Shown piece after piece: positions 2,345 to 17,876 of a stretch of DNA of 32,000 bases. The stretch spans positions 330,001 to 362,000 of the forward strand of contig OY843585.1 of the NCBI GenBank assembly GCA_963692945.1, in the 5' to 3' direction. Source of the stretch: Bdellovibrionales bacterium. GTDB lineage: Bacteria; Bdellovibrionota; Bdellovibrionia; Bdellovibrionales; UBA1609. The notes under the pieces are model-generated. The model saw only the letters and a list, made by a program, of their open reading frames with translations. It was not told where the DNA came from and made no database searches. The position numbers and the translations under genes are program-made. The stretch's first letter is position 1. Each line of letters starts with the position of its first letter.

Positions 2345-2611
2345 TTAGTTTTCATCAGAAGTTTCAGAGGGCTTCTTGATGGCTTGTTCAATCTTTGGTG
2401 GGTTGATCTTAACATCTTCCATTCCTAATTTATCCCTTACTTCATTCACAGCACCTGTTAGGGTTGTTAAACAATTTGTTGCTATAAAATTAACCGAATC
2501 AATTAAGTTCTTTTGATTCTCTTTTATTGGACCTAGCTGGTTCTTTAATTCCTTGCTAAATAGTCCCATTAGCTCATCTACATTAAAAAATTTCTTTCCT
2601 GTGTTACTCAT
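2345..2611 (-). CDS. Hypothetical small protein (88 aa)
   Basis: ATG-initiated ORF preceded by AAGGAG about 10 nt upstream (revcomp of 2622-2627). No recognisable motifs. Confidence 0.5.
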   Translation of the reverse strand: MSNTGKKFFNVDELMGLFSKELKNQLGPIKENQKNLIDSVNFIATNCLTTLTGAVNEVRDKLGMEDVKINPPKIEQAIKKPSETSDEN

Positions 2612-2855
2612 AAAACCACCAATGCTCCTTTTTTATTTGTTTTTTTAATATCACTAATATATCGGCTTGATCAAGACAAAACTTGAATGAAATTCCCCAG
2701 CTCATTACTTTAAGTATACTTGATTTTAAGTGCTTTTTCAACTATTTATTAGTGGTATAAATAGGTGTAGTTTAGTCACTCACCTAGAAAAATTCACTAC
2801 ACTGAGACGACAGAAAGACAAAAAAAATATTAGTAGCAAAGAGGATTCAATCTAT

Positions 2856-4277: not shown

Positions 4278-4389
4278 ATTTAATGGGGGGGGGGGTAAAA
4301 GTTTTTATTACAAAAATCTTTAGGATTTGACCTGTTATAAATTTTAGAATTTCAAATACAGTGTTTTTAAATTTTAGAATTTCATTCAT
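4225..4389 (-). CDS. Small ORF 1 of the tandem repeat array (54 codons in the present G-tract state); runs across the start of the 2856-4277 gene
   Basis: The ATG at 4389 overlaps the stop of small ORF 2 (TAATG). Encodes MNEILKFKNTVFEILKFITGQILKIFVIKTFTPPP..., reads through the C11 tract and stops 52 nt inside the downstream gene, out of frame. Confidence 0.3.
   Translation of the reverse strand: MNEILKFKNTVFEILKFITGQILKIFVIKTFTPPPIKYESFIFYMLFFSSSFSS
4285..4295. repeat. Homopolymeric G11 tract (C11 on the coding strand), 7 nt upstream of the ATG at 4277
   Basis: Direct read: taat-ggggggggggg-taaaa. The equivalent position in the other two repeat units has G5 (4419-4423, 4556-4560). Confidence 0.95.
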
Positions 4390-4526
4390 TAACATGTCTC
4401 CTTTAAATTTGTTGAGATGGGGGTGCAAGTTTTTATTACAAAAATCTTTAGAATTTGACCTGTTACAAATTTTAGAATTTTAAATACAATGTTTTTATTT
4501 ATTAAAAATTTTAGAATTTCATTCAT
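4389..4526 (-). CDS. Small ORF 2 of the tandem repeat array (45 codons)
   Basis: AGGAGG lies 8 nt upstream of the ATG. The ATG overlaps the stop of small ORF 3 (TAATG) and its own stop overlaps the ATG of small ORF 1. Encodes MNEILKFLINKNIVFKILKFVTGQILKIFVIKTCTPISTNLKETC. Confidence 0.3.
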   Translation of the reverse strand: MNEILKFLINKNIVFKILKFVTGQILKIFVIKTCTPISTNLKETC

Positions 4527-4654
4527 TAATAGGTCCTCCTTAAATTTGTTGAGATGGGGGTAAAAGTTTTTATTACAAAAATCTTTAGGATTTGACCTCT
4601 TACAAATTTTAGAATTTCAAATACAATGTTTTTATTTTTTAGAATTTCATTCAT
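4526..4654 (-). CDS. Small ORF 3 of the tandem repeat array (42 codons)
   Basis: AAAGGAG directly follows the TAA of the 4668-5843 gene, and the ATG at 4654 is 8 nt downstream of GGAG. Encodes MNEILKNKNIVFEILKFVRGQILKIFVIKTFTPISTNLRRTY. Confidence 0.3.
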   Translation of the reverse strand: MNEILKNKNIVFEILKFVRGQILKIFVIKTFTPISTNLRRTY

Positions 4655-4667
4655 TAACATGTCTCCT

Positions 4668-5843
4668 TTAAATTTGTTGTCTAGACGGTCTAGAATATTT
4701 TTTTAGTCCTTCTATAAATTGTTTGTTCTTTCTTCTTTCTTGGTAGCGACGATGCATCAATAAAAAGATATTGTCTTCAATCACCCCAACTTTATCTTTT
4801 CCTACAGTCACTGTTTTCCCAGATGTAGTGATTTTCTTTTTTTTGAATTGATCAAATAAACTTTGAAATTTTTTAAAAGTATCAGGGCTTTTCCTTTTTC
4901 TTTTTTTCTCACCTTCAATTTCAGATACAGACCCTATCAATCGGTTGCCGGGTTGGAAAGCTCCAAAACTTTTTGAAGGGTCTGAAGTAGAAGCTTCTTC
5001 TGTCTCTTCCTCTTCTTCATCAAAAAGATGTGGCTCTTTAGCTTTTATATCGTCCATCATTTTTTTAACTGCTTTTTGTTGGCTAGGATTTAAGTTCTTA
5101 AAAAGATCAGATCCTCGTTTAACTTTAATTCCGTTTTTACCATTAGGTGCTTCTGGTCCATTAAGAGAATCTAAAGAGGGACAATCTGCTGGTGGACAGC
5201 CTAGTATCTCGTTTAGTCCTCCTTGAAGCTCACCTGGTGAAGGGTTTGTTTCAATCAGGTCTGTTATTTTTTTACATATGGGTGTGTTGCAAGGATTTTC
5301 TGGTTCTGGATTTTCTTCATTTTGTAGAGAGTTGCTTCTATCACTAAATTTCTTTTCTTTATCCTGTATGGTTAGGTATTGTATTGCAAGAGCAGCAGCT
5401 AAACCACCCGTTGCCATGCCTGCCCATTCCCAATATGCAGCGGCAGGAGTGCCTGCTGCTTTTTTTGCCCTCATAAAAAACAAAGCAGATGCAATTCCAT
5501 TTATAACAGCCCAATCTTTTGTTTTTCTTTTTTGTTTTGTAACTTGATCTTTTGCACTTTCTTGTTTTTGAGCATCTATATTGTCAAGGGTGGCTTCCCT
5601 TTGATAATGATTTGATTCAGCTTCTTTAGCCTCTAACAAAGCTTCTTTTTGAGACAAGAGGACTTTTTCTGAAGCACAACTGCGACAATCTTGAAGTGTT
5701 GTTTTCAGTTCTCCTATTTCTTGTTTTAACTGCAAGATCTCTTGGCTTAAACCACTGGCTTTATCAGCATTAGAAGTTGTTGCTAGAGAAACAAATGAAA
5801 AAAGAAAGCAAAAAGCAAAAATAAAAACTCTAATCACTGACAA
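4668..5843 (-). CDS. Secreted protein, paralog B of the cluster (391 aa)
   Basis: Signal peptide ...FAFCFLFSFVSLATTSNA and the same module order as paralog C. The TTG start at 5843 sits 6 nt after AGAGGT and overlaps the end of the upstream gene by 10 nt. An in-frame GTG at 5837 gives a GTGA overlap as an alternative start. Confidence 0.8.
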   Translation of the reverse strand: MSVIRVFIFAFCFLFSFVSLATTSNADKASGLSQEILQLKQEIGELKTTLQDCRSCASEKVLLSQKEALLEAKEAESNHYQREATLDNIDAQKQESAKDQVTKQKRKTKDWAVINGIASALFFMRAKKAAGTPAAAYWEWAGMATGGLAAALAIQYLTIQDKEKKFSDRSNSLQNEENPEPENPCNTPICKKITDLIETNPSPGELQGGLNEILGCPPADCPSLDSLNGPEAPNGKNGIKVKRGSDLFKNLNPSQQKAVKKMMDDIKAKEPHLFDEEEEETEEASTSDPSKSFGAFQPGNRLIGSVSEIEGEKKRKRKSPDTFKKFQSLFDQFKKKKITTSGKTVTVGKDKVGVIEDNIFLLMHRRYQERRKNKQFIEGLKKYSRPSRQQI

Positions 5844-7318
5844 TTTTTACCTCTGTCTGTGCAATAAGATTTAATAAGAGTTGTCATATGCTCAAAAATA
5901 TTTTTATGTTTTCCATTAGCACTTGATAGTGTTCGTTTAGAACGAGAATCGCTAGAAGAACTGGCACTGCCAGATGTCTTTTTACCACTTCCCTTTCCTA
6001 AAGGGTCGTTTTCATGGTTGCTTGCTTCTCCCCCACCAGAGCGAACTCCTCCTGCAAAACTACCAAAACCTCTTCCATAAGAGCTTCTAGAAGATCTTGC
6101 TCCTTTTCCTAATCCCTCTTCATCATCGTCTGTATTTCCTGCTAAAGAACTTCCTGGTGCCAAAGGAGGAGAACCGGTTGGAGTTTTTGAATCTTTTTTA
6201 TCATTAGCTTCTGCTTCTGCTGTAGAGTCTTCTGTTCCACTTGATGGTGGGAGTTCATTACCAGGGTCTGGTGGTGTTTCTCCAGCACTGGGGTCGTCTA
6301 TGTTTGCAGTTAGACAATTACTTCCAGTACATGTTGATGGGTTTTCACCAAGGTCAAAAGTTGAACCACTACCTGGGACGGTAGGTCTATTAGGTGGTGG
6401 TGGAGTTTTATCTTTTTTGCCGTCGTTATCTTTTAAATGGTCAGCAATTGTATAATTTATAGCTGCATGTAAAAGATTCTCTAGACCTTGACCCATGGCA
6501 GCTGCTGCTTTTTCTCTTTCTTTTGAACATTTGGTTTTAAATTCTTCAGCACTTGTAATTTCTGATGAACATAACTTTTCAATGGCTTCATCTTTATTTT
6601 CAACTTCTTTTGTAATTTCTGATGATGTACAGGATTCTAAGGCTTGTTTTATTTCTTTATCTATTTCTTCTATATTTTGTACTAATCCTACAAAGTTTGT
6701 TTTTTTTGTTATCTTATCTATACAAGTTTCACAGGCTTTAATTTTTTCTGTACAGGCACTTTCACACTTACGAATGTCAGTGTAACACATACCTGATACA
6801 GCAGCATTTACACCAGCTAAACCAAGATTCAGATTACCTATTTTCTCAGTTACTTGTCCTCCATTACTTGGTTTATTAGCTGCTACAACAGCTCCGTACA
6901 TTGTTCCACCTCTTCCAAGGTATGTGGATGCTGTAGTCAACTTTCTTGCTGTACAAGTGTCTTCCACTTTCCCCGGAGCATCAGCATTACATTCTATTGG
7001 GTCACCATCACCTTCTCCTGCTTCAGCTTTATTAAATGGAGAGTAGGCCGTTAAAGGATTAGGACCAGTGTGCTGCCTCTTAGCACTATTAGGTACTTCT
7101 GTCTTAACAGAAGAGGAAGTTTGATAATAATTACAAAATTTATTTTCCTCACCACAGGCTTTCATTCTTTTTTGTTCTATTTGGAATGCTTTGACTGCAT
7201 CAACATTTTCAGATGAAGCTTGATGAGAGTTAAAAAGAAAGTTAGGATTAAACATAAACATAAACATAAACATAAACGATTTTAATAATTTAAAAATTAT
7301 TGATAAAAGATTTTTCAT
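5834..7318 (-). CDS. Secreted Cys-rich / low-complexity protein A, first gene of the cluster (494 aa)
   Basis: ATG preceded by AAGGATGGG. Hydrophobic N-terminus with an (FM)4 repeat, a Cys-rich central helical region (CESACTEKIKACETCIDK...), and a Pro/Gly/Ser-rich C-terminal half ending in NIFEHMTTLIKSYCTDRGKNCQ. Confidence 0.75.
   Translation of the reverse strand: MKNLLSIIFKLLKSFMFMFMFMFNPNFLFNSHQASSENVDAVKAFQIEQKRMKACGEENKFCNYYQTSSSVKTEVPNSAKRQHTGPNPLTAYSPFNKAEAGEGDGDPIECNADAPGKVEDTCTARKLTTASTYLGRGGTMYGAVVAANKPSNGGQVTEKIGNLNLGLAGVNAAVSGMCYTDIRKCESACTEKIKACETCIDKITKKTNFVGLVQNIEEIDKEIKQALESCTSSEITKEVENKDEAIEKLCSSEITSAEEFKTKCSKEREKAAAAMGQGLENLLHAAINYTIADHLKDNDGKKDKTPPPPNRPTVPGSGSTFDLGENPSTCTGSNCLTANIDDPSAGETPPDPGNELPPSSGTEDSTAEAEANDKKDSKTPTGSPPLAPGSSLAGNTDDDEEGLGKGARSSRSSYGRGFGSFAGGVRSGGGEASNHENDPLGKGSGKKTSGSASSSSDSRSKRTLSSANGKHKNIFEHMTTLIKSYCTDRGKNCQ
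7250..7278. repeat. Hexanucleotide repeat (AAACAT)4 plus a partial unit, encoding FMFMFMFMF in the signal peptide of protein A
   Basis: Direct read: aaacat x4 at 7250-7273, followed by aaacg. Confidence 0.95.
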
Positions 7319-7340
7319 ATTTTTCCCATCCTTAAAATTT

Positions 7341-7382
7341 CTTACTTCTTACTTCTTACTTCTTTCTTCTTACTTCTTTCTT
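7341..7382. repeat. Six tandem heptamers (CTTACTT/CTTTCTT) 23-64 nt upstream of the protein A start codon
   Basis: Direct read: cttactt x3 (7341-7361), ctttctt, cttactt, ctttctt. Confidence 0.9.
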
Positions 7383-7511: not shown

Positions 7512-7816
7512 TAACAAAACTCTCGTTCAAAAAAGTATTTTCTACTCTTATTTTAACGAGCTTTTCATCACAAGAGGGGACACTCTTTTACAAAACTCTA
7601 GTGTTACCTTTCTTATTTTCTGACCTTTCATCGTAAAAGGGGACACTCTTCAAGCTCAAAAAGTAAAAAAGGTATTCCTAGAGAAAAACTTCTGTTTTTC
7701 GCACTTTTGTTTTTCGCATCACCGGTTTTCTGAGTTTTCATCGTAAGAGGGACACTCTTCAAATCTCGTTAAACTAAGAGTTACTTAATAGGCTTATATT
7801 TGAACTAGAGTTTTGT
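7512..7816. repeat. Cluster R1 of modular hairpin (MITE/REP-like) elements, three cores
   Basis: Termini are TAACAAAACTCTCGTTC (7512-) and TGAACTAGAGTTTTG (-7815), with an internal CAAAACTCTAG at 7591. Core copies TTTCATC(G/A)(T/C)AA.AGGG(G)ACACTCTT at 7563-7589, 7626-7653 and 7736-7762. Also holds the GGTATTCCTAGAGAAAAACTTCTGTTTTTCGCA module seen in R4 and R5. Confidence 0.85.
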
Positions 7817-7922
7817 AAAAACGACAGTATCCGAATTTACAAATAAAAAATGAAAAAAAGCCCTGCTTCTTGATAGTTTATTCATACTCTCTTTTTGCTT
7901 TATATAGATATTGAGAAAAACA

Positions 7923-8966
7923 ATGTCTAAAAAAGCTAAGCAAGTTTTAAATCTTAAAAATCAAACCTTAGAATTTAAAAAAGGAATTCATAAGAAAAAC
8001 ACAGCTTTTAGTCATGATAAGTTTTTTAAACTCTTCTATTCTAATCCTGACTTAGCTACAGAACTCTTTGAACTCATCTTTTCAAAAAAAGAAATGAAAG
8101 CTTATGATTGGAAAAAACTAAAAATAGAAAAAGATAGTTTTGAAGATAAAAGAGCTGATCTTATTTTCTCTGTTCCTTTTAAAAAAATTCCTAAAATGAA
8201 ACTCACCCTCTTTATTCTTCTAGAACATAAGTCCTATTATGATAAAAACCTCTTCCATCAACTTTTAGATTATCAAGTGTTAATTCACCGACATAATAAA
8301 GACCATCTTGGTTATTTACAACCTATAATTCCTGTTTTGTTTTATCATGGGAAACAAACTATGAAGTGGAAATCTTCTTTTTTAGAAGAGAATTTTAGAG
8401 ATTCTCTTTTTAAAATTCCTTTAGAAACAAGAAAAAACATGTTAAACTACAAGTTGAAAGTAATAGATGTGAATGCTCCAAGAGTCCAAAGAGCTGGTAA
8501 GGATAAAAGGTTTAAGGGGCGAGGGGCGTTGAGTTTATTGAGGGAAATATGGAGTTTAAAGAACCCAACAGATTCTAAGTTGCGTGAGATTGTTTTAGAT
8601 TTTAAGGAGTTGTTTAAAAGTATAGAAGGTCAACGAAAAGCGGATGTTTTGTTAGGAATTACTGAGTATCTGAAACAGAACACGGGGTTGAGTGCAAAGA
8701 ATTGGAAGAAGATTGAGGATTTGATGGTAAAAGAGGGATTTTTAAAAAGAGGAGGAACTATGATAAATATGAGAAAGATTATAAGAGAACGAGCTCTGGA
8801 AGAAGGACTGGAAGAAGGACAACGAAAAGGACGACAAGAGGGGCGACAAGAGTTTAAAAAAGTTATTTTGAATATGTTGAAGAAAAAACTTGATATCTCT
8901 TTGATTTCGGAAGTGACAGGTTTGTCTAAAGCAGAGATTAAAAAACTAAAAAACAGTCATAAGTGA
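7923..8966 (+). CDS. Rpn/YhgA-like recombination-promoting nuclease (PD-(D/E)XK, 'transposase_31' family), full-length form
   Basis: N-terminal HDKFFKLFYSNPDLATELFELIF, then RADLIFSV...LTLFILLEHKSYYDKNLFHQLLDY (a D...E-x-K nuclease motif in the YhgA-like arrangement), and a C-terminal VILNMLKKKLDISLISEVTGLSKAEIKKL helix-turn-helix-like tail. The ORF track starts at TTG 7911; the first ATG is at 7923. Confidence 0.8.
   Translation: MSKKAKQVLNLKNQTLEFKKGIHKKNTAFSHDKFFKLFYSNPDLATELFELIFSKKEMKAYDWKKLKIEKDSFEDKRADLIFSVPFKKIPKMKLTLFILLEHKSYYDKNLFHQLLDYQVLIHRHNKDHLGYLQPIIPVLFYHGKQTMKWKSSFLEENFRDSLFKIPLETRKNMLNYKLKVIDVNAPRVQRAGKDKRFKGRGALSLLREIWSLKNPTDSKLREIVLDFKELFKSIEGQRKADVLLGITEYLKQNTGLSAKNWKKIEDLMVKEGFLKRGGTMINMRKIIRERALEEGLEEGQRKGRQEGRQEFKKVILNMLKKKLDISLISEVTGLSKAEIKKLKNSHK
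8749..8762 (+). promoter_or_regulatory. Internal ribosome-binding site plus in-frame ATG inside the rpn-like gene
   Basis: AGAGGAGGAACT-ATG, with GGAGG at 8751-8755 and the ATG at 8760 in frame (residue 284). A second in-frame ATG lies at 8769. The same SD+ATG block heads the two downstream cassettes. Confidence 0.6.
8760..8966 (+). CDS. Candidate internally initiated C-terminal small protein (RpnS-like, 68 aa) nested in the rpn-like gene
   Basis: In-frame ATG with a strong SD. The product is MINMRKIIRERA + 19-aa linker (LEEGLEEGQRKGRQEGRQE) + conserved tail. The same architecture occurs as separate genes at 9013 and 9327. Confidence 0.5.
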   Translation: MINMRKIIRERALEEGLEEGQRKGRQEGRQEFKKVILNMLKKKLDISLISEVTGLSKAEIKKLKNSHK

Positions 8967-9012
8967 TTTTTTAAATGTCTTTAAAGAGGGGCTTTTAAAA
9001 AGAGGAGGAACT

Positions 9013-9261
9013 ATGATAAATATGAGAGAGATTGTAAGAGAACGAGCTCGGGAAGAAGGACGACAGGAAGAACGAAAAAAATGGTTTAAAAACGGACAAA
9101 CTAGGGGACGACAAGAAGGGTTTAAAAAAGGACGACGAGAGGGACGACGAGAAAAACGACAAGAGTTTAAAGAAGTTATTTTGAATATGTTGAAGAAAAA
9201 ACTTGATATCTCTTTGATTTCGGAAGTGACAGGTTTGTCTAAAGCAGAGATTAAAAAATAG
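9013..9261 (+). CDS. Free-standing RpnS-like C-terminal cassette, copy 2 (82 aa)
   Basis: Same AAAAGAGGAGGAACTATGATAAATATGAGA head as at 8745-8774. The 39-aa linker has 4-residue periodicity (REEG RQEE RKKW FKNG QTRG RQEG FKKG RREG RREK RQE). The 84-nt tail (9175-9258) is identical to 8862-8945. Confidence 0.6.
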   Translation: MINMREIVRERAREEGRQEERKKWFKNGQTRGRQEGFKKGRREGRREKRQEFKEVILNMLKKKLDISLISEVTGLSKAEIKK

Positions 9262-9326
9262 TCATAAGTGATTTTTTAAATGTCTTCAAAGAGGGATTTT
9301 TAAAAAGAGGAGGAACTATAATAAAT

Positions 9327-9662
9327 ATGAAAAAGATTATAAAAGAACAAGCTATGGATAAAGAGTTTCAAGAAACTCTTAAAAAAGGGTTTCAAACTTG
9401 GATAAAAGAGCGTCAAAAAGGGTTTGAAGAAGCACAACGAGAATGGTTTCCAGAAGAGTCTGAAAAAGGGTTTAAAAAAGGGTTTAAAAAAGGACGACAA
9501 GAAGGACAACAAAAAGGACGACAAGAAGGACAACAAAAGTTTCAAAAAGTTATTTTGAATATGTTGAAGAAAAAACTTGATATCTCTTTGATTTCGGAAG
9601 TGACAGGTTTGTCTAAAGCAGAGATTAAAAAACTAAAAAATAGTCATAGAACAAAACTCTAA
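9327..9662 (+). CDS. Free-standing RpnS-like C-terminal cassette, copy 3 (111 aa)
   Basis: Same head, but the first ATG is mutated to ATA, so the start is the second ATG. 62-aa linker and an identical 84-nt tail (9549-9632). The last codons ACA AAA CTC TAA lie in the terminus of repeat cluster R2. Confidence 0.6.
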   Translation: MKKIIKEQAMDKEFQETLKKGFQTWIKERQKGFEEAQREWFPEESEKGFKKGFKKGRQEGQQKGRQEGQQKFQKVILNMLKKKLDISLISEVTGLSKAEIKKLKNSHRTKL

Positions 9663-9742
9663 TTTTACTTTTTGAGCTTGAAGAGTGTCCCCTTTTACGA
9701 TGAAAAGCTCGTTAAAGTAAAAGTTCACACACGAGAGTTTTG
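9651..9742. repeat. Cluster R2: single hairpin element
   Basis: ACAAAACTCTAA...TTTTACTTTTTGAGC-[TTGAAGAGTGTCCCCTTTTACGATGAAA, 9678-9705]-GCTCGTTAAAGTAAAAGTTCACACACGAGAGTTTTG. The arms are self-complementary. Confidence 0.85.
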
Positions 9743-9783
9743 AAAAAGTTGACTTTTTCAAGAAAATTTTGCATTTTAACTTA

Positions 9784-10485
9784 ATGCCTATTGTTCTTAT
9801 TTTTCTTTGTTTTTTTTGTATGTTTGGCTGTGTGAATGCTGAAAAAACACAAGCTAGATTTACAGCAAAAAAATATTATGAGATATCTCTCCAATATAAA
9901 AAAGAAGGAAAGTTATCTAAAGCTCTTAAAACTTTAGAAGAACTTAAAAAACATTTTTCCTATGATTCTTACAGCTTGTCAGCCTCTTTACTTATAGCAG
10001 ATATTCATTTTGAAAGAAGAGACTATGTTCTTGCAGCTGGTCTCTACACACAATTTCAAAAAATTTATCCAAAAACGAAAAGTCAATATGTTCACTATCA
10101 GCTAGGACGTTCTTATTTTTATCAACTTCCTAAGTCTGCTGATAAAGATTTATCTGTAGGAGAGTTGGCTTTACAAAACTTTCAACCTCTTTTACGAAAA
10201 TCCTCTCCTTACAAAAAAGAAGCTAAAAAATATGTGAAAAAAATTCAGACTCTAAAATCTAAAAAAGATTTTCTAGCGGCTCTTTTTTATTCAAAGAAAA
10301 AATGGAATCCATCGGCTTGGAAGCGATTGCAAATTCTTATAAAAGAGTATCCTGAAAGTCCTTTTGTCCCAGAGGCTCTTTTGCTTAGCTATAAACTGGC
10401 TAAAAAAATGAATAAAAATCCTAGCTCTTTTAAAAACCGTTTACTCAAAGAATTTCCAAAATCTGAACAAGCAAAATCCTTATGA
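9784..10485 (+). CDS. bamD: Outer membrane protein assembly factor BamD-like TPR lipoprotein
   Basis: Signal peptide with lipobox (CMFGC). The TPR-like pattern and the ...YPKTKSQYVHYQLGRSYFYQ..., ...SSPYKKEAKKYVKKI..., ...EYPESPFVPEALLL... segments match the BamD/ComL layout. The ORF track starts at TTG 9769; the first ATG is at 9784. Confidence 0.65.
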   Translation: MPIVLIFLCFFCMFGCVNAEKTQARFTAKKYYEISLQYKKEGKLSKALKTLEELKKHFSYDSYSLSASLLIADIHFERRDYVLAAGLYTQFQKIYPKTKSQYVHYQLGRSYFYQLPKSADKDLSVGELALQNFQPLLRKSSPYKKEAKKYVKKIQTLKSKKDFLAALFYSKKKWNPSAWKRLQILIKEYPESPFVPEALLLSYKLAKKMNKNPSSFKNRLLKEFPKSEQAKSL

Positions 10486-10991
10486 AATCATCAACTGTTT
10501 TTTTAGCAGAGAAAGAGATTCAAAAGTTAGTTAAGGGCTTAGCTAAAGAAATCAATCATGAATATAAAGATATAAAAGAAGCCCTTGTTTTGATTTGTCC
10601 TCTTAAAGGGTCTTTGTTTTTTTTGGCTGACCTCATTCGCCATTTAGAAATACCTGTTGTTTTAGATTTTATTTCTATAGAGACAAGGCAAAAAGGAAAC
10701 TTTCATATTTTAAAAGACATAAAAGTTCCTATTAAAAATAAAAATGTTCTTATTATTAAGGAGATTTTAAATGCAGGGAGAAAATTACTTTTTCTCAAAA
10801 AAAGAATTGAAGCGAGTTCTCCTCAAAGTGTGAAAATAGCAACTCTTATTGATAAACCTTCTCAAAGACAGTTGAATTTACAATCTGATTTTTTTGGACT
10901 TTCTACAGATGATCGTTACATTTTTGGTTATGGCTTAGACCATGAAGAAAAATATAGAAATCTTAGAAGTTTTCATCTTTTCACTCAATAA
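10482..10991 (+). CDS. hpt: Hypoxanthine phosphoribosyltransferase family protein with an atypical PRPP-binding motif
   Basis: LKGSLFFLADLIR, ILKDIKVPIKNKNVLII, IATLIDKPSQRQ and YIFGYGLDHEEKYRNL align with HPRT. The motif normally read as VLIVEDI(I/V)D(S/T)G is VLIIKEILNAG here. The start overlaps the bamD stop (ATGA). Confidence 0.75.
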   Translation: MKSSTVFLAEKEIQKLVKGLAKEINHEYKDIKEALVLICPLKGSLFFLADLIRHLEIPVVLDFISIETRQKGNFHILKDIKVPIKNKNVLIIKEILNAGRKLLFLKKRIEASSPQSVKIATLIDKPSQRQLNLQSDFFGLSTDDRYIFGYGLDHEEKYRNLRSFHLFTQ

Positions 10992-11088
10992 CAAAACTCT
11001 AGTTCTTCCTTTTTATTTTTAATATTTCTTTATAAAACGAGTATAGTTTTTGTATATAGTTTATGGTAAACTAAAAGAAGGAGAAATA

Positions 11089-11826
11089 ATGAGTAATAAA
11101 TCTACTGTTTTGGAGGCTAAAGCTTATTTTGCAGAAATTCGGAAACTCTTCAAAGAACGAAAAGAGTGCGATAAAGAAATGGCAGAGGAGCGAAGAAAAG
11201 AACGAGAAGAGCGAAAAAAAGAACGAAAAGAGTACGATAAAAAAATGGCAGAAGAGCGAAGAAAAGAACTAGAAAAAGAGCGAGAAGAGTACGATGAAAA
11301 AGCAGCAGAAGATATTAAAGAACTCCGAGCTAGCCAAAAAGCAACTGCCAAACAAATAAAAGAGACGGATCTAAAATTCAATGATTACTGGGATAATTGG
11401 GATAATTGGGATAACTGGGATAACTTGATGGAATCTTTATATAAACGAGATTTAGTGAAACTTCTAAAACAAAAAGGTATCAAAGTTGATCTGACTGCAA
11501 CAAATATAGTGAAAAAACATGGGGAACCACAATTTGAATTTGATATTTTAGCTTCCAATGGGGAGGAGCTCGTTGTTGTAGAAGTGACAACAACTTTGTA
11601 TATTAAAGAGTTGAATTATTTCATTAAGAAATTAAATAGAGTTACGGATTTTATGCCAGAATTTAAAGGTAAGAAAGTTTATGGAGCCGTTGCGTATTTA
11701 AAAGCCAATAAATCTTCTGACAAAAGAGCTGAGAAAGAGGGTTTGTTTGTGATAAGAGCGACAGAAAGCAGTTCCAATATTGTTAATAAGCAGGATTTTA
11801 AACCCAAATCTTTTTCAAAACTCTAG
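11089..11826 (+). CDS. DUF3782-like protein: N-terminal coiled coil + C-terminal PD-(D/E)XK-type domain, copy 1
   Basis: AAGGAG lies 6 nt before the ATG at 11089 (the ORF track's TTG 11050 extension is unlikely). FEFDILASNGEELVVVEVTTTL is a D...E-V-(K/T) motif, read as EVK in copy 2. The layout (coiled coil, then the short nuclease-like domain, ...KVYGAVAYL...GLFVI) matches DUF3782-type proteins as I remember them. The last codons TCA AAA CTC TAG lie in the element terminus. Confidence 0.55.
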   Translation: MSNKSTVLEAKAYFAEIRKLFKERKECDKEMAEERRKEREERKKERKEYDKKMAEERRKELEKEREEYDEKAAEDIKELRASQKATAKQIKETDLKFNDYWDNWDNWDNWDNLMESLYKRDLVKLLKQKGIKVDLTATNIVKKHGEPQFEFDILASNGEELVVVEVTTTLYIKELNYFIKKLNRVTDFMPEFKGKKVYGAVAYLKANKSSDKRAEKEGLFVIRATESSSNIVNKQDFKPKSFSKL

Positions 11827-12093
11827 TTCAGTTCTACTAATACCCTTTTCTTTTTAGGAGATTTTCGTCGTAGGAGCTCCTCAAACACCTAAAAAGAAAA
11901 GGGCTCTTACTTATTGTTTGAACTAGAGAAAACCTACTGGTTTTCGCATTTTACTTATAATAAATTTGCGAAAAACATCAGTGCGAAAAACGAAGGTTTT
12001 CTCTAGGAATACCTTTCTTATTTTCTGAACTTGAAGAGTGTCCCTCTTACGATGAAAGGTCAGAAAATAAGAAAGGGTAACACGAGAGTTTTG
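11816..12093. repeat. Cluster R4 of modular hairpin elements, two cores
   Basis: Unit 11816-11928 runs CAAAACTCTAGTTCA...CCCTTTTCTTTTTAGGAG-[core variant 11863-11885]-CCTAAAAAGAAAAGGG...TGAACTAGAG. Unit 12001-12093 runs CTCTAGGAATACCTTTCTTATTTTCTGA-[core 12031-12057]-TCAGAAAATAAGAAAGGGTAACACGAGAGTTTTG. Between them lies a GTTTTCGCA...TGCGAAAAC hairpin and the CGAAAAAC module. Confidence 0.85.
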
Positions 12094-13152
12094 TTAAATA
12101 TTGTCTGTCACATGTTGATAAACAGTCATTATAGTAACCTTAAGAGCACTCACTAAAGGAATGCTAATAATCATTCCTAAAACACCCATAAACTGAGCTC
12201 CTGCAATAATAATCACAATCACAGTTAAAGGGTGAAGATCTACAATGCGAGCAAGAAGAATAGGAACTAAAACTATGGAATCAATAAATTGAGTGAAATA
12301 AAAAATACCTAACACAATAAGAATCTGGCTGGCTTCATAATCATTCACAAGAGCCACTAGAAAAATAACAATACTAGCGACAATGGGACCTACATAAGGA
12401 ACAAGATTAGCTAAAGCCGCAAAACCTGCAAGCAAAATAGCAAAAGGGAATTTGAAAAAAAACAAAGTGACTCCCACAATGATTCCTACAATAAGAGCTT
12501 CCAATAGACGACCTCTGATAAAGACACCAATTTGTTGATTGATTTTATAATGCAGACCTAGAAACATTTCAAAAAGCTGATTGGGAACAAGAGGGTATAA
12601 ATACCTTGTCAGCCCCCACTCATTTCTGACCATAAAAAAAGCAAAGAAAGGAGCTAGAAGTAAAATGGTAAAAGATTGGGCTAAAGTTGAAGGAAGGTCT
12701 TGTAAAAAAGCAGTTCCTAAAGATTGTAAAAAACTTTCTAAATTAGAAGACAAATCAAAACTTCTCATAAAAAACAAATGAGTTTCTAAACCCTCTTGCC
12801 AAGTTTTTATAAGGACAGTTGTTTTTTGAACATAATTTGGAAACTCCGTTTTTAAATTTAAGAATTGTTGAGATAAAAAGGGAAACATCCAGGCAATCAA
12901 ACCGGAAAGAGCCCCTATCGTGCTAACAAAAACAATGGATGCCGATAAAAGTCTTGGCAATCCCCACTTACAAAGAAGATTCACAAGGGGCAAAAGAATA
13001 AAACTTATCACAAAAGCAAGAAGTAAAGTTATAAAAAGCCCTTTGATAATGAAAAGAGCCGAGAGGAGAAAACTAAAAATAAGTAAGAAAAAAGAGATTC
13101 TAAAAAAATTTAACCGACGGATTCGTTTTTTTGTATCTAATAAAGGAATCAT
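12094..13152 (-). CDS. AI-2E family transporter (PerM/YhhT-like permease)
   Basis: Multi-pass membrane protein of ~350 aa with the characteristic ...LANLVPYVGPIVASIVIFLVAL... segment. Its stop codon directly abuts the R4 terminus. Confidence 0.75.
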   Translation of the reverse strand: MIPLLDTKKRIRRLNFFRISFFLLIFSFLLSALFIIKGLFITLLLAFVISFILLPLVNLLCKWGLPRLLSASIVFVSTIGALSGLIAWMFPFLSQQFLNLKTEFPNYVQKTTVLIKTWQEGLETHLFFMRSFDLSSNLESFLQSLGTAFLQDLPSTLAQSFTILLLAPFFAFFMVRNEWGLTRYLYPLVPNQLFEMFLGLHYKINQQIGVFIRGRLLEALIVGIIVGVTLFFFKFPFAILLAGFAALANLVPYVGPIVASIVIFLVALVNDYEASQILIVLGIFYFTQFIDSIVLVPILLARIVDLHPLTVIVIIIAGAQFMGVLGMIISIPLVSALKVTIMTVYQHVTDNI

Positions 13153-13652
13153 TTTGTGGAATGCACCTGAAGTATTTTTTGCTCTGCTTTTTTCAACCTA
13201 TGACTTAAAATAAGACAAAGTTGGTTTAAAATTTTTATACCCGTTAAAGGTCGTCTCTTTAAAATGAGATTCAAATCAGGTTTATAAAAAGCTAAAAGTT
13301 GAGAGTTTGTAGCGGATTGTGCAAACATGGTTTGATAAGCTTCATTTTGTAAGAGAGCAAGTTCTGCAAAAAAATCTCCCACCTTCAAGGAGGAAACAAG
13401 GGAGGGGTCTTCTTGGGAATCAGGTGATCCATGAAGAATATTCACTTGTCCTTTTAAAATAATATACATTCCATTTCCAGAAGAGGGTTTAAAAATAATT
13501 TCTCCTGTCGTATAAATTCTTTTATGAAAAATCTTTTGTATAAAGTGGAGTTCTTTATTGGTTAGATTAGAAAAGAGAGGGCAATCTTTAATGTATTTTA
13601 ATTCCCCATGCTTTTTTTTATTAAAAAAATTATTCCAAAAGATTTCTAACAT
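13149..13652 (-). CDS. Cyclic-nucleotide-binding domain protein (stand-alone CAP effector-type domain)
   Basis: FSNLTNKELHFIQKIFHKRIYTTGEIIFKPSSGNGMYIILKGQVNI...VGDFFAELALL... is the cNMP-binding fold signature, and no DNA-binding HTH follows. The preferred start is the ATG at 13652 (GGAG 5 nt upstream, 2 nt after the upstream stop) rather than 13694. Its stop overlaps the transporter start (ATGA). Confidence 0.7.
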   Translation of the reverse strand: MLEIFWNNFFNKKKHGELKYIKDCPLFSNLTNKELHFIQKIFHKRIYTTGEIIFKPSSGNGMYIILKGQVNILHGSPDSQEDPSLVSSLKVGDFFAELALLQNEAYQTMFAQSATNSQLLAFYKPDLNLILKRRPLTGIKILNQLCLILSHRLKKAEQKILQVHSTK

Positions 13653-13654
13653 TT

Positions 13655-14293
13655 TTACTCCAAAGTTTGAATAAGGTTTTCTTTTAAAAGCCAACCTTTT
13701 TTATGTTGAGAGGTTTTAACTTGTCCCCACTTACCCCGTTGTTTTAAAAAAACCAAATCAGATCCTTTTCTAATCGTTTCTACAGAAAGAGCTTTCTCAA
13801 AAGGAGAGTTTAAAAGTTCTAGCTCCTTTAAATTAGAAACTCTTTTTTTAAGGTTAAAAAAACCACTTAAAAAGACAATCGTCAAGCCACAAAACCAGAG
13901 AGCGATCATTTTAAAGTTTCTTTTAAAAAGGAAAGCTTGTTTTAGGGAAAAAACCAGACAAATTAAGGATAAAAGGGCAAAAAGCAAGCTTCCTATTTGC
14001 CAGATAAAAGGGGCTAAAGAGACCTCCTCTTTTAAAGTTTTTAAAGTCAGATAGGAAGGGAAGAAAAGAGATTGATAAAAATTTTTCCGAAATAAAATGA
14101 CGGCAGAAGTTTTATCTTCTGATTTAAGCTTTTGTAAAGCTTTATTGTGTAAGTCAACAGGGGATAAGGGTGGTTGATTTTCAAAAAGAGATTCCAAATC
14201 AGCGGATTTAGAGTCAGAGAAACCCGAAGCAGAAAGTCCATTAGAAAAACCGAAAGACAAATAGATATAAAAAAACATTCTCAAAAGAAGCAT
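13655..14293 (-). CDS. Hypothetical membrane protein with signal peptide, two or three TM segments and an SH3b-like C-terminus
   Basis: N-terminal MLLLRMFFYIYLSFGFSNGLSA, hydrophobic stretches (IWQIGSLLFALLSLICLVF, MIALWFCGLTIVFLSGFF), and a C-terminal GKWGQVKTSQHKKGWLLKENL that resembles bacterial SH3 motifs. Confidence 0.5.
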   Translation of the reverse strand: MLLLRMFFYIYLSFGFSNGLSASGFSDSKSADLESLFENQPPLSPVDLHNKALQKLKSEDKTSAVILFRKNFYQSLFFPSYLTLKTLKEEVSLAPFIWQIGSLLFALLSLICLVFSLKQAFLFKRNFKMIALWFCGLTIVFLSGFFNLKKRVSNLKELELLNSPFEKALSVETIRKGSDLVFLKQRGKWGQVKTSQHKKGWLLKENLIQTLE

Positions 14294-14316
14294 ACTTGGA
14301 CTATAATAGGATAATT

Positions 14317-15657
14317 ATGAAAAATGTTAAACCCTACAATTCATTATTAACTTCTTTTTTAAAAGAAATAGAAAAACAAAGTCTTTTTTTGAATAAGCCC
14401 AGAGATTCGGATCCCTCCAAACGAGAAAGTTACTACAAAAATCTTGAGCAAATCGCTCATTTAAGAGGACGCCCTGCTTATTATCCTTATATCAGTTCTG
14501 GTGTAGGTCATGGGGCTTTGGTTCAACTTCTTGATGGAAGTGTTAAGTTGGATTTTATTTGTGGGATTGGACCTCATATTTTAGGTCATTCTCATCCAGA
14601 GATTTTAAAAGCCTCTCTTCGTGGAGCTTTAGAAGATACAACCATGCAAGGTCATCTTCAGTTTAGTTCCATTTATAAAGAGTTTTTGGAAAAACTTCTA
14701 TTTTTAGCTCGTAGGAAGTCCCGATTGAGACAGGCTTGGTTATGTCCTTCAGGTTCTATGGCTAATGAGAATGCTTTAAAAGTGATTCGTCAAAAAAAAG
14801 AAGGAGCAAAAACGATCCTCGCTTTTGAAAGGGCTTTTGCGGGTCGGACAACTCTTATGGCAGAAATCACAGACAATCCAAGTATTAAACAGGGCTTGCC
14901 TTCTTACGATGAAGTGTTAAGAGTTCCCTTTTCTCCTGAAGATCCAGAAAAATCTTTAGAGGTGTTAAAAAAACATTGGAACCAAAAGGGAAAGGACATA
15001 GCTTGTTTTATGGTAGAGCTTATGCAAGGGGATGGAGGTTGTTATAGAGCTTCTAGAGATTTTTTTGTTCCGCTGTTTGAATTTTGTAGAGAAAAACAGA
15101 TAGCGATTTGGTTGGATGAAGTTCAAACTTTTGCAAGAAGTGGAGAGTTTTTTGGTTTTGAAAAATTAAATCTTGGAGAGTATGTGGATGTTTGCACTAT
15201 AGGTAAGGCCTTGCAATTATCGGCTTCGTTATGGACTAAGGAATACAACCCTAAGCCGGGACTGGTTTCAGGAACTTTTTCATCTAGCTCTACAAGTTTG
15301 CACAGTGGGCTAGAGGTTCTAAAAATTTTAGATGAAAAAAATTATATGGGGGAACAGGGAAGAATTTCTCAAATTTATGAACAATGGGTTTCTCGACTGA
15401 AAGTTTTAGAACAGGAGAATTTAGTGTCAGAAATAGAAGGTTGGGGCTTGATGATAGGAGTGACTCCTTTAGATGGAAATCCAGAAATGGTGAAAAAATT
15501 ATTACAGGTTTTATTTCAAAAAGGATTGATGTGTTATTCTTGTGGTTCTGATTTGAAAAAAAGACTTAGGTTTCTTTTGCCAGCTGTTGTTCAAAATGAA
15601 AATTTAGATCAAGCTTTAGAAATACTGAGAGAAGCTCTTTTAGAACTGAAAAAATAG
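14317..15657 (+). CDS. Class III (PLP-dependent) aminotransferase
   Basis: GIGPHILGHSHPEI, PSGSMANENALK, WLDEVQTFARSGEFFGFE and TIGKALQ (putative PLP lysine) follow the class III order. The substrate cannot be assigned. The ORF track starts at TTG 14296; the first ATG is at 14317. Confidence 0.75.
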   Translation: MKNVKPYNSLLTSFLKEIEKQSLFLNKPRDSDPSKRESYYKNLEQIAHLRGRPAYYPYISSGVGHGALVQLLDGSVKLDFICGIGPHILGHSHPEILKASLRGALEDTTMQGHLQFSSIYKEFLEKLLFLARRKSRLRQAWLCPSGSMANENALKVIRQKKEGAKTILAFERAFAGRTTLMAEITDNPSIKQGLPSYDEVLRVPFSPEDPEKSLEVLKKHWNQKGKDIACFMVELMQGDGGCYRASRDFFVPLFEFCREKQIAIWLDEVQTFARSGEFFGFEKLNLGEYVDVCTIGKALQLSASLWTKEYNPKPGLVSGTFSSSSTSLHSGLEVLKILDEKNYMGEQGRISQIYEQWVSRLKVLEQENLVSEIEGWGLMIGVTPLDGNPEMVKKLLQVLFQKGLMCYSCGSDLKKRLRFLLPAVVQNENLDQALEILREALLELKK

Positions 15658-15710
15658 AAAGTTCAATTTGAAGGAATGTTTTGAGAGTTTTTATTAGAGG
15701 GATTCAATTT

Positions 15711-16706
15711 ATGAAATTAAAAGTGTTTTTTTTAATCAGTCTTTGTCTTGCAGGTTTATTTGTTTATACTTTTTTTACTCCCATTCATTTCAAGGGTCAA
15801 AGTGTTATTTTAGATGTTTCACCCGGAAAAACTTTTTACCAATTGGCTGAGGAGTTGGAAGAAAAAAATCTTATTAGAGAGTCCTTTTATTTTAAATTAT
15901 TGATTCGTCTGTTTGGTTCTCCTATTTTACAGGTGGGGGAATACCGTCTTTCTCAAGGAGAATCTCTTTGGACACAGTTTCAAAAAATCAGAAATGGAGA
16001 TATTCATTATGTTTTTTTAACTTTTAAAGAGGGGTTGAATCATTATGAAATGGGACAAATACTTAAAAATTATGGTTGGAAGGAGTATGAAAATTTTTTA
16101 AATCTAATAGAGGATAAATCTTTTATTAAAAGTCTTTTAAAAGAAGACCTTTCTTCTTTGGAAGGATATTTATTTCCAGACACCTATGATTTAAGCAAGT
16201 ATATGACAGCAGAAATTCTTATAACTAGAATGGTTAAAAATTTTTTAAAGAACTATGAAAAGATTGTAAAAACACCAACTTCTTTTTCTCGTCATGAAAT
16301 TGTAACTTTTGCAAGTTTGATTGAAAAAGAAACAGGAGTCCCTCAAGAGCGTTCCATTATTTCTTCAGTCTTTTACAATCGTCTTAAGAAAAAGATGAGA
16401 CTTCAAACAGACCCCACTATTTTGTATAGTCTTTATTTGAAAAAGGGGTTTTCTATAGAAAAAAATATTCGTAAAAAAGATATTCTTATGCCCTCCCCTT
16501 ACAACACTTATGTGATTTATGGACTTCCTAAGGGACCTATTGCTAATCCAGGAAGGGCAAGTTTGCAAGCGGTTTTAAAACCAGCTTCAACGGATTATTT
16601 TTATTTTGTAAGTCGTAATGATGGAACTCATGTTTTTTCTAAAACTTATGAAGAGCATAAAAAATATGTTTATAAATATCAAATAAAGCCTTTTCAAAAA
16701 CTCTAG
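15711..16706 (+). CDS. mltG: Endolytic murein transglycosylase MltG (YceG-like)
   Basis: N-terminal TM helix, GEYRLSQGES, ASLIEKETGVPQERSIISSVFYNRLKKKMRLQTDPTILY, YNTYVIYGLPKGPIANPGRASLQAVLKP and YFYFVSRNDGTHVFSKTYEEH. The ATG at 15711 follows GAGGG. The last codons CAA AAA CTC TAG lie in the R5 terminus. Confidence 0.85.
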   Translation: MKLKVFFLISLCLAGLFVYTFFTPIHFKGQSVILDVSPGKTFYQLAEELEEKNLIRESFYFKLLIRLFGSPILQVGEYRLSQGESLWTQFQKIRNGDIHYVFLTFKEGLNHYEMGQILKNYGWKEYENFLNLIEDKSFIKSLLKEDLSSLEGYLFPDTYDLSKYMTAEILITRMVKNFLKNYEKIVKTPTSFSRHEIVTFASLIEKETGVPQERSIISSVFYNRLKKKMRLQTDPTILYSLYLKKGFSIEKNIRKKDILMPSPYNTYVIYGLPKGPIANPGRASLQAVLKPASTDYFYFVSRNDGTHVFSKTYEEHKKYVYKYQIKPFQKL

Positions 16707-17022
16707 TGTGTGAACTTTCATTTTCACGAGCTTTTCATCACAGGAGAGATGTTCTTCAAATCTCGTTAAAATGAAAGTTTTAACATAGAGAAAAACTTCT
16801 GTTTTTCGCAACTCTGGTTTTTGTATAGAAAAAACTTCGTTTTTTGCAGGGTTGTTTTTCGCACTTGAGCTTTCAGATTCAAAACTTTTTTAAAAACCAG
16901 TAGGTTTTCTCTCGTTCATTATAAGTAAGAATCTTTTTCTTTTTAGGAGTTTGAGGAGTGTCCCCTTTTACGACGAAAACCTCCTAAAAAGAAAAAGATA
17001 TTAGAACTGAACGAGAGTTTTG
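16695..17022. repeat. Cluster R5 of modular hairpin elements, two cores
   Basis: Unit 16695-16790 runs CAAAAACTCTAGTGTGTGAACTTTCATTTTCACGAG-[degenerate core 16733-16759]-ATCTCGTTAAAATGAAAGTTTTAACATAGAG. Next come the GAGAAAAACTTCTGTTTTTCGCA modules. The last unit runs CTCTCGTTCATT...CTTTTTCTTTTTAGGAG-[core 16951-16978]-CTCCTAAAAAGAAAAAGATATTAGAACTGAACGAGAGTTTTG. Confidence 0.85.
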
Positions 17023-17094
17023 TTAAATATTTTTTTATAAAACTTGGCATGGTTTTTGCATATAACTTATGGTAAACTAAAAAAAGGAGAAATA

Positions 17095-17715
17095 ATGAGT
17101 AATAAATCTACTGTTTTAGAGGCTAAAGCTTATTTTGCAGAAATTTGGAAACTTTTCAACGAGCAAAAAGAGTACGATAAACAAACGGCAATGGAGCGAA
17201 AAGAATATGAAAAAAAAGCAGCAGAAGATATTAAAGAGCTCCGAGCTCTCCAAAAAGCAACTGCCAAACAGCTAAAAGAGACTGATCTAAAATTCAATGG
17301 TCACTGGGGTAAGTTGATGGAGACTTTAGTTGAAGGAGATTTAGTGAAACTTCTAAAACAAAAAGGTATCCAAGTTGATCGGACGGCAACAAATATACTG
17401 AAAAAACACGGGGAACAACAATTTGAATTTGATATTTTAGCTTTCAATGGGGAAGAGATCGTTGTTGTAGAAGTGAAAACAACTTTAGATATTAAAGAGT
17501 TGAATTATTTTATTAAGAAATTAAATAGAGTTACGGATTTTATGCCAGAATTTAAAGGTAAGAAAGTTTATGGAGCCGTTGCGTATTTAAAAGCCAATCA
17601 ATCTTCTGACAAAAGAGCTGAGAAAGAGGGTTTGTTTGTGATCAGAGCGACAGGAAGCAGTTCCAGTATTATTAATAAGCAGGGGTTTAAACCCAAATTT
17701 TTTCAAAAACTCTAG
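17095..17715 (+). CDS. DUF3782-like coiled-coil + PD-(D/E)XK-type protein, copy 2
   Basis: Paralog of 11089-11826 with the same SD/ATG context. FEFDILAFNGEEIVVVEVKTTL gives an intact D...E-V-K. About ten mismatches over the last ~185 nt compared with copy 1 (by eye). Lacks the in-frame expansions of copy 1. Confidence 0.55.
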   Translation: MSNKSTVLEAKAYFAEIWKLFNEQKEYDKQTAMERKEYEKKAAEDIKELRALQKATAKQLKETDLKFNGHWGKLMETLVEGDLVKLLKQKGIQVDRTATNILKKHGEQQFEFDILAFNGEEIVVVEVKTTLDIKELNYFIKKLNRVTDFMPEFKGKKVYGAVAYLKANQSSDKRAEKEGLFVIRATGSSSSIINKQGFKPKFFQKL

Positions 17716-17876
17716 TTCTTCCCCTCCTTGTTTTCTGACCTTTCATCGTAAGAGGGACACTCTTCAAATCTCGTGAAAATAAAAATTCACACACTAGAGT
17801 TTTGTAAAAGAGTGTCCCCTTTTACGACGAAAATCTCCTAAAAAGAAAAAGATATTAGAACTGAACGAGAGTTTTG
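17704..17876. repeat. Cluster R6 of modular hairpin elements, two cores in opposite orientation
   Basis: CAAAAACTCTAGTTC..., core at 17741-17767, ATCTCGTGAAAATAAAAATTCACACACTAGAGTTTTG, inverted core at 17807-17833, then CTCCTAAAAAGAAAAAGATATTAGAACTGAACGAGAGTTTTG. It ends 1 nt from the stop of the 17878-20061 gene. Confidence 0.85.

Follow-up and report, generated by a model that had tools for sequence, protein, structure and literature searches.

A probable family of non-autonomous foldback repeats within 10 kb of a small Bdellovibrionales genome

We describe a family of repeats located between positions 7512 and 17876 of a 32,000-nucleotide stretch of a Bdellovibrionales chromosome (assembly GCA_963692945.1, contig OY843585.1, positions 330,001 to 362,000 of the forward strand), which is referred to as the window. 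The ten units, each built around a 27-nt core and grouped in five clusters, probably represent a lineage-specific, non-coding and non-autonomous foldback repeat family of the kind of miniature inverted-repeat transposable elements (MITEs) and bacterial interspersed mosaic elements (BIMEs). They are regarded as mobile or recombinogenic repeats because of their conserved inverted ends, their small non-coding size, their absence from orthologous sites, a bounded insertion and the decay of some copies. Although previously undescribed, the family belongs among the familiar "junk" repeats of bacteria and is not a new kind of system. Within 10 kb these repeats reshape a reduced genome: they provide stop codons, separate genes which once overlapped, flank duplicating nuclease genes and mark an inversion.

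Architecture of the repeats

The first-pass annotation of this DNA had listed ten copies of the core. The exact 27-mer is present at 7736 (+), 12031 (-) and 17741 (+), with 0 occurrences expected by chance. A profile built from the ten proposed sites recovered exactly those ten (7559-7591, 7623-7657, 7733-7767, 9674-9709, 11859-11888, 12026-12060, 16729-16764, 16947-16982, 17738-17772 and 17803-17835) with E-values from 5e-10 to 3e-4, and neither the window nor 1.46 Mb of other loci contained a further site.

The ends of the elements, a half-element at 10992 and the gene and synteny context were absent from that annotation. Thirteen copies of a terminal inverted repeat of 11 nt, CAAAACTCT[A/C]G, lie between 7515 and 17876 and bound every cluster. 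The window contains 14 matches to this terminus in total versus 1.7 expected, and the sole match outside the region, at 26820, has one mismatch. The ends of the clusters are asymmetric irrespective of the arm type, as the left ends of clusters B to E read CTAG or CTAA and the right ends CGAG.

Read in the orientation of the core, a unit comprises the terminus, a pyrimidine-rich arm, the 27-nt core, a complementary purine-rich arm and the sequence CTAGAG, after which either TTTTG (the other terminus) or a module named M2 follows. The basic unit measures 70-115 bp and the full element about 280-330 bp; inside the elements only spurious open reading frames (ORFs) of at most 44 aa are found. M2 corresponds to GTTTTTCGCA and its near copies, located at eight positions (7694, 7709, 11939, 11967, 11982, 16801, 16839 and 16854), so that a second module does accompany the hairpin units as had been proposed. 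Clusters C (278 bp) and D (327 bp) follow the same plan, a unit on the plus strand, M2 and a unit on the minus strand, closed by termini, while clusters A, B and E resemble rearranged or truncated forms of this composite. The comparison with BIME-like chaining made earlier is apt, since clusters C and D each consist of two inverted units around M2.

Table 1. Repeat clusters, blocks, arm types and genes of the region (positions in the window; u1 to u10 are the units in order).
Feature	Position	Strand	Description
Block 1	7515-9742		Rpn/YhgA-like gene, followed by two additional copies of the C-terminal part
Block 2	10992-12093		hjcA
Block 3	16696-17876		cluster D, hjcB and cluster E
Cluster A	7515-7815		u1 7515-7590, core +, no right arm; u2 7591-7683, core +; M2 7684-7718; u3 7719-7815, core +, chimeric arms
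Cluster B	9652-9742	-	u4 as its single unit (core on - strand), between CAAAACTCTAA and CGAGAGTTTTG; fold z = -3.6
Half-element	10992-11020	+	left terminus and type II-like left-arm fragment, fused to the upstream region of hjcA
Cluster C	11816-12093		u5 11816-11928, core +, type III; M2 palindrome 11929-12000; u6 12001-12093, core -, type II
Cluster D	16696-17022		u7 16696-16790, core + (degenerate), type I; M2 region 16791-16908; u8 16909-17022, core -, type III
Cluster E	17705-17876		u9 17705-17804, core +, type II left/type I right; u10 17794-17876, core -, no second arm
Type I arms			left: u1, u4, u7; right: u3, u7, u9, loosely u4
Type II arms			left: u2, u6, u9; right: u2, u6
Type III arms			left: u5, u8, u10; right: u5, u8
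rpn	7923-8966	+	Rpn/YhgA-like PD-(D/E)XK recombination-promoting nuclease; PF04754, E = 2.5e-23; block 1
Extra rpn C-terminal copies	9013-9261 and 9327-9662	+	repeat families, ORF translations, partial TIGR01784 match
hjcA	11089-11826	+	Hjc-like PD-(D/E)XK nuclease; PF01870
hjcB	17095-17715	+	Hjc-like PD-(D/E)XK nuclease; PF01870, E = 3.4e-9; identical to P0001
Cys-rich protein gene	5834-7318	-	no family match
Aminotransferase gene	14296-15657

A matrix of left-arm against right-arm complementarity resolves the arms into three types which are mutually non-complementary. Scores within a type range from 13 to 29, those across types from 4 to 9, the same as in the shuffled null (5.5 +/- 1.1), which bears out the earlier statement that at least three unrelated arm types exist. 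That most cores sit between two pairing arms was however overstated. Only u5, u6, u7 and u8 possess fully matching arms of their own, u2 and u4 match partly, u3 and u9 are chimeras whose left arm is of type II and whose right arm is of type I, and u1 and u10 are without a right arm. The chimeric units change the arm type within the core, as is expected if subfamilies recombine in the conserved block.

Insertion and inversion relative to other genomes

The window is ordinary chromosome with 33% G+C and housekeeping genes such as rpsB, tsf, pyrH, frr, priA, bamD, hpt and mltG. The aminotransferase encoded at 14296-15657 assigns it to the Bdellovibrionales. The host genome is small; the HjcB protein is 100% identical to P0001, which is encoded on a contig of 1,561,448 bp. 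The nearest available relative is a metagenome-assembled genome from a sea cave (locus L001) with 74% amino-acid identity, and the next relatives are several small genomes of 1.9-2.2 Mb with 65-67% identity. The gene order in L001 is hpt, bamD, AI-2E transporter, cyclic nucleotide (cNMP)-binding protein, hypothetical protein, aminotransferase, two more genes, mltG and tadG.

In L001 mltG and tadG overlap by 11 bp. The window has 1,181 bp between them, and these are exactly block 3, bounded by AAAAACTCTAG and CGAGAGTTTTG; judged by the gene order, block 3 is a 1,181-bp insertion relative to L001. The empty site of L001 is too diverged for placing the junction. A second difference concerns bamD and hpt, which lie on the strand of the AI-2E transporter gene in L001, L006 and L007, while the segment 9743-10991 is reversed in the window according to tblastn synteny. 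The inversion ends exactly on the right terminus at 9742, where cluster B forms the left breakpoint, and on the left terminus at 10992. No part of the repeats is present in 80 related loci, and the orthologous spacers of the closest relatives lack the units.

The outer termini are closely fitted to the neighbouring genes, and housekeeping genes begin or end within 1-2 bases of them. The TAA of hpt directly precedes the CAAAAC of the half-element at 10992, the AI-2E transporter gene ends with its stop codon flush against the right terminus of cluster C, and tadG stops 1 nt past the right terminus of cluster E. The stop codons of mltG (cluster D), hjcA (cluster C), hjcB (cluster E) and the last rpn fragment (cluster B) lie inside left termini, where ...AAA CTC TAG is read as K-L-stop. 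An "inside-out" reading, which takes the genes as insertion sequences with CTAGAGTTTTG as their outer end, was also considered and fails, as CAAAAC is outermost at all five housekeeping junctions.

A promoter-like site (TTGAAA, 16 nt, GAAAAT) at 9740-9767 spans the right terminus of cluster B and lies shortly before the inverted segment with bamD and hpt, on its upstream side. This segment has lost its former upstream operon context, and the element of cluster B may therefore now provide its promoter.

Folding and covariation of the units

Each unit was folded as a single strand. Of the ten, five form the arm hairpin better than shuffled sequences do, with z from -2.8 to -7.2. Four units are no better than their shuffles (z from -1.5 to +0.5), and u1 reaches z = -3.6 through a fold other than the arm hairpin. 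As single strands, cluster C folds with -60.1 kcal/mol and z = -10.6 into three hairpins which the termini close, and cluster D into a set of hairpins (z = -6.5). The hairpins of M2 are A+T-rich and weak, with -2.3 to -8.8 kcal/mol and z from +1.2 to -2.8.

The conserved centre with compensating stems described by the first-pass annotation was borne out by a hand-registered alignment of eight units, in which 14 of 19 arm pairs change on both sides. The proportion of cells that pair is 79.5% versus 68.3% in shuffles, with none of 500 shuffles reaching 79.5%, and pairing falls to 36-57% if the partner is slid by 1-3 columns. Pairing which is kept while the arm sequence changes shows an apparent pairing constraint during propagation. 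Covariation alone does not separate RNA from single-stranded DNA or a cruciform.

The further conclusion that a presented structure is under selection, rather than the units being a MITE, found no support. Inverted termini, absence from the spacers of relatives, the bounded insertion, the inversion ending on termini and the four of ten units without pairing all run counter to it and are typical of mobile or recombinogenic repeats instead of a conserved host RNA.

Searches for the family elsewhere

The DNA collections that were scanned hold sequences other than the source genome's own 1.56-Mb contig. The core pattern had 0 matches in genome contigs (185,579 species genomes), in metagenome contigs and in viral contigs. 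The composites had no blastn match among plasmids, phages or E. coli genomes, and blastn together with profile scans of 90 related loci found nothing. No copy of the 27-mer was present in related loci, a search which the first-pass annotation had recommended. The pattern of the terminus pair matched nine times in metagenomes, which is chance level, and none of the nine has the core. Protein searches with peptides translated from the repeats found nothing either. Rfam 15 gave 0 matches at the gathering score, and below it only chance-level matches to models of miRNA precursors, that is generic hairpins; a known RNA family is thereby ruled out. Repeats derived from tRNA are ruled out as well, as there is no tRNA gene in the window. 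The annotation had not recognised the family, and it indeed has no match in Rfam, phages, plasmids, E. coli, species genomes or metagenomes.

Nuclease genes between the termini

All ten cores lie within three terminus-bounded blocks, each of which carries one gene for a PD-(D/E)XK nuclease, one of them Rpn and two Hjc-like (Table 1). The Rpn protein scores 53.1 bits against TIGR01784 (cut-off 52.1), and a paralogue that is 95% identical, P0121, is encoded on the same 1.56-Mb contig. In HjcB a D...E-V-K motif aligns with the D...E-V-K stretch of the Hjc structure 1GEF.

The homology between hjcA and hjcB spans exactly from terminus to terminus. Three more Hjc-like paralogues are encoded on the contig of P0001, namely P0002, P0003 and P0004 with 94%, 86% and 82% identity. 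All five Hjc paralogues of this genome end with F(Q/T/S)KL-stop, whereas the homologues of other genomes end with ...KPKAFS-stop. In-frame translation of the terminus yields this K-L-stop, so that three or more additional termini are expected elsewhere in the genome. The junction of gene and terminus which the paralogues have in common would accordingly be older than the duplications, with gene and terminus duplicated together.

Some further features of these genes may be mentioned. The nuclease domains of hjcA and hjcB are 93% identical at the DNA level, and the indels between both genes fall mainly in an N-terminal coiled-coil region of 21-23-nt repeats (11152-11425 and 17158-17214). A tract of 4.8 copies of the 9-nt sequence GATAACTGG, coding for DNW repeats, is found in hjcA only. 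The 3' part of rpn is present in tandem triplicate (8694-9662), and the two free-standing ORFs (9013-9261 and 9327-9662) code for the variable C-terminal domain only and contain 12-nt (four-residue) repeats in differing number. In E. coli the C-terminal domain of Rpn, produced from an internal start, is RpnS, the antitoxin of the Rpn nuclease (PMC10400941). By analogy the C-terminal ORFs may be additional antitoxin genes.

The hjc-like genes of two other small genomes are multi-copy as well, through plain duplications of 0.85-0.96 kb. Locus L092 contains four hjc-like (DUF8196) copies in 4 kb (2600-7096), enclosed by a 111-nt inverted repeat of 95% complementarity, and in L081 two such copies (2458-3397 and 9722-10681) are 96% identical and 7 kb apart. 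Neither in these two loci nor in L091, which likewise show plain duplications of hjc-like or rpn genes, was a comparable hairpin repeat family found, and the rpn locus of one relative is without hairpin ends.

Comparison with known repeats

Among the described bacterial repeats the doublets of the BIME-1/RIP and REPIN type come close. Like the clusters reported here they are extragenic, located at gene 3' ends or between convergent genes, and form mosaic chains, and like clusters C and D they contain two inverted hairpin units around a distinct central module. These two clusters are indeed inverted doublets around a specific spacer motif outside genes, which is what characterizes BIMEs. The single units are different from those of repetitive extragenic palindromes (REPs), which measure about 35 bp and have conserved stems, variable loops and a GTAG-like 5' tetranucleotide, and no RAYT (Y1/HUH) gene was seen in the window. 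The units of the window measure 70-115 bp and have a conserved centre and exchangeable stems; the stems belong to three non-complementary types, so that the units are no conserved-stem palindromes of ~20-40 bp with a 5' tetranucleotide.

The BOX elements of Streptococcus pneumoniae are likewise modular, with the order boxA-boxB(n)-boxC, complementary outer modules and variable composition. They differ in their unrelated sequence and host, and they vary in the number of modules and not by compensating stem types.

The foldback MITEs (Correia/NEMIS, ERIC/IRU, RUP and MITEAba12) resemble the family in being small and non-coding, with terminal inverted repeats and long hairpin potential, in being present or absent between relatives, in ORF fusions which give stop codons, and in their link to rearrangements. 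For ORF fusions that provide stop codons MITEAba12 is the comparison case (PMC6382973). Terminal inverted repeats, small non-coding multi-copy units and a filled versus an empty site (mltG/tadG) are all found here, as is typical for MITEs. Unlike in these families, conservation peaks at the ends and in the centre and not at the ends alone, and there are three arm types.

Alternative explanations

The units could also be structured RNA that is selected by the host in 3' untranslated regions, where they would terminate transcription in both directions, stabilise mRNA as hairpins or serve as insulators, with the core as a protein- or RNA-binding loop. Four of the five clusters come after gene 3' ends, the stems covary, and clusters C, D and E present from either side a core(+) unit first and then M2 with its 7-bp hairpin and T-rich tract, as would suit such a function. 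We nevertheless consider it unlikely. Cluster A is located upstream of both neighbours, in the divergent spacer between the gene at 5834-7318 (-) and rpn, and u4 is antisense to its upstream gene. The orthologous spacers of the relatives do without units, no Rfam family matches, the M2 hairpins are weak, and four of the ten units no longer fold. A scan for terminators gave 10 sites versus 6.4 +/- 2.7 expected, of which only that at 11928-11945, in M2, falls in a repeat; an enrichment of promoters or terminators was rejected.

Two further explanations assign the blocks a mobility of their own. The hairpin clusters might delimit autonomous cassettes that owe their movement to a PD-(D/E)XK nuclease of their own, with the Hjc-like or Rpn enzyme cutting the cruciform or hairpin extruded by the arms and the core being its specific site. 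The enclosure of all ten cores in three terminus-bounded blocks with a nuclease gene in each, the motif retained by HjcB, the gene-terminus junction common to five paralogues and the insertion of block 3 as one piece agree with this idea, which we still hold to be very improbable. A complete pair of termini bounds each cluster by itself, so that the genes look like passengers, and hjc-like or rpn genes occur in three other genomes without such hairpins and were multiplied there by plain duplication. Zhong et al. (2023) reported no terminal repeats or target duplications around rpn genes, argued that Rpn proteins are not transposases and noted that no autonomous transposase of the PD-(D/E)XK fold is known (PMC10400941); these findings weigh against it as well. 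We give even less credit to the stronger claim that the blocks are a new class of mobile cassettes whose hairpin ends are recognised as cruciforms or hairpins and cut by the structure-specific nuclease they carry, with the core as specificity site. Should this claim hold, an enzyme of the PD-(D/E)XK fold would for the first time be seen to drive an autonomous mobile element. Least probable of all, the units would be sites of a site-specific or single-strand recombinase that recognises them by structure, in the style of integron attC or Xer, and the blocks gene cassettes. Conserved ends with variable yet paired stems do follow the logic of attC, and the genes form discrete blocks between the sites. 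The termini CAAAAC/GTTTTG (ACAAAAC...GTTTTGT), however, miss the R''/R' boxes of attC (RYYYAAC/GTTRRRY), the window contains neither an integrase nor a recombinase gene, and the units are single, doubled and inverted instead of one per cassette; integron attC sites were rejected on these grounds. To our knowledge attC sites also have no conserved central 27-mer, which we count against this explanation.

Interpretation

The reading as a non-autonomous foldback family of the MITE/BIME kind has its own difficulties, and the following points weigh against it. No transposase with matching ends was found in the window, the end sequence that a partner transposase would need to match being (T)TTTACAAAACTCTAG. 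No target-site duplication is readable: on either side the sequence running towards the element is (c)TTTT(a/t)(a), an A+T-rich background from which direct repeats cannot be told apart. The covariation stems from hand registration of eight sequences with about three independent arm lineages. All copies were seen in a stretch of 10 kb, and a local hot spot of recombination would fit this as well.

Ends and loop that are conserved, combined with stems that are exchangeable yet paired, point to the recognition of folded DNA or RNA. By analogy, a conserved foot and loop with free but paired stems suggests that a folded intermediate is recognised, foot and loop by sequence and the stem by pairing. 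The same logic is known from attC sites and from the hairpins read by single-strand transposases. With attC, IS200/IS605 or REP hairpins the family has in common that the foot is read by sequence, here the loop too, and the stem by pairing only. Unlike for attC and IS200/IS605, the defining boxes are lacking and the window holds no cognate enzyme, so that the likeness is a mechanistic analogy only.

Under the foldback-repeat reading the element would be copied or moved via a folded intermediate, either a single-stranded hairpin or a cruciform, by an enzyme presumably encoded elsewhere. If recognition of this intermediate depends on sequence at the base and in the loop but solely on pairing along the stem, this would account for the compensating arms. 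Homologous recombination at the conserved blocks could have reshuffled the arms, produced the chimeras and inverted the DNA between copies. The nuclease genes are most simply explained as passengers which were caught between two elements and duplicated along with them, and this trapping could have proceeded in the manner of composite transposons. As in these, the nuclease genes are enclosed exactly by a right and a left terminus, block 3 was inserted whole, and paralogues have a common junction; unlike in composite transposons, no duplication flanks the blocks.

Other features of the window

An AAA_14/DUF4143 ATPase encoded at 1134-2288 (-) matches the PADLOC candidate defence family PDC-S01 (E = 3e-65), and a homologue of it adjoins the hjc-like genes in L081. 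Two paralogous genes without known domains, 2856-4277 (-) and 4668-5843 (-), are separated by a 137-bp tandem repeat (4291-4679, 3 copies, 86% matches), each copy of which terminates in a sequence resembling a ribosome-binding site with a start codon. The heptamer TTCTTAC is repeated 6.3 times at 7339-7382, 21-64 nt upstream of the start codon of the gene 5834-7318 (-), and is a candidate for a slipped-strand switch. The aminotransferase gene and mltG are only 23 bp apart in the window (15657-15681). Two genes are found at this place in L001 (5001-7434), and the gap is of similar size in L006 and L007; the spacing in the window looks like a local gene loss in a reduced genome.

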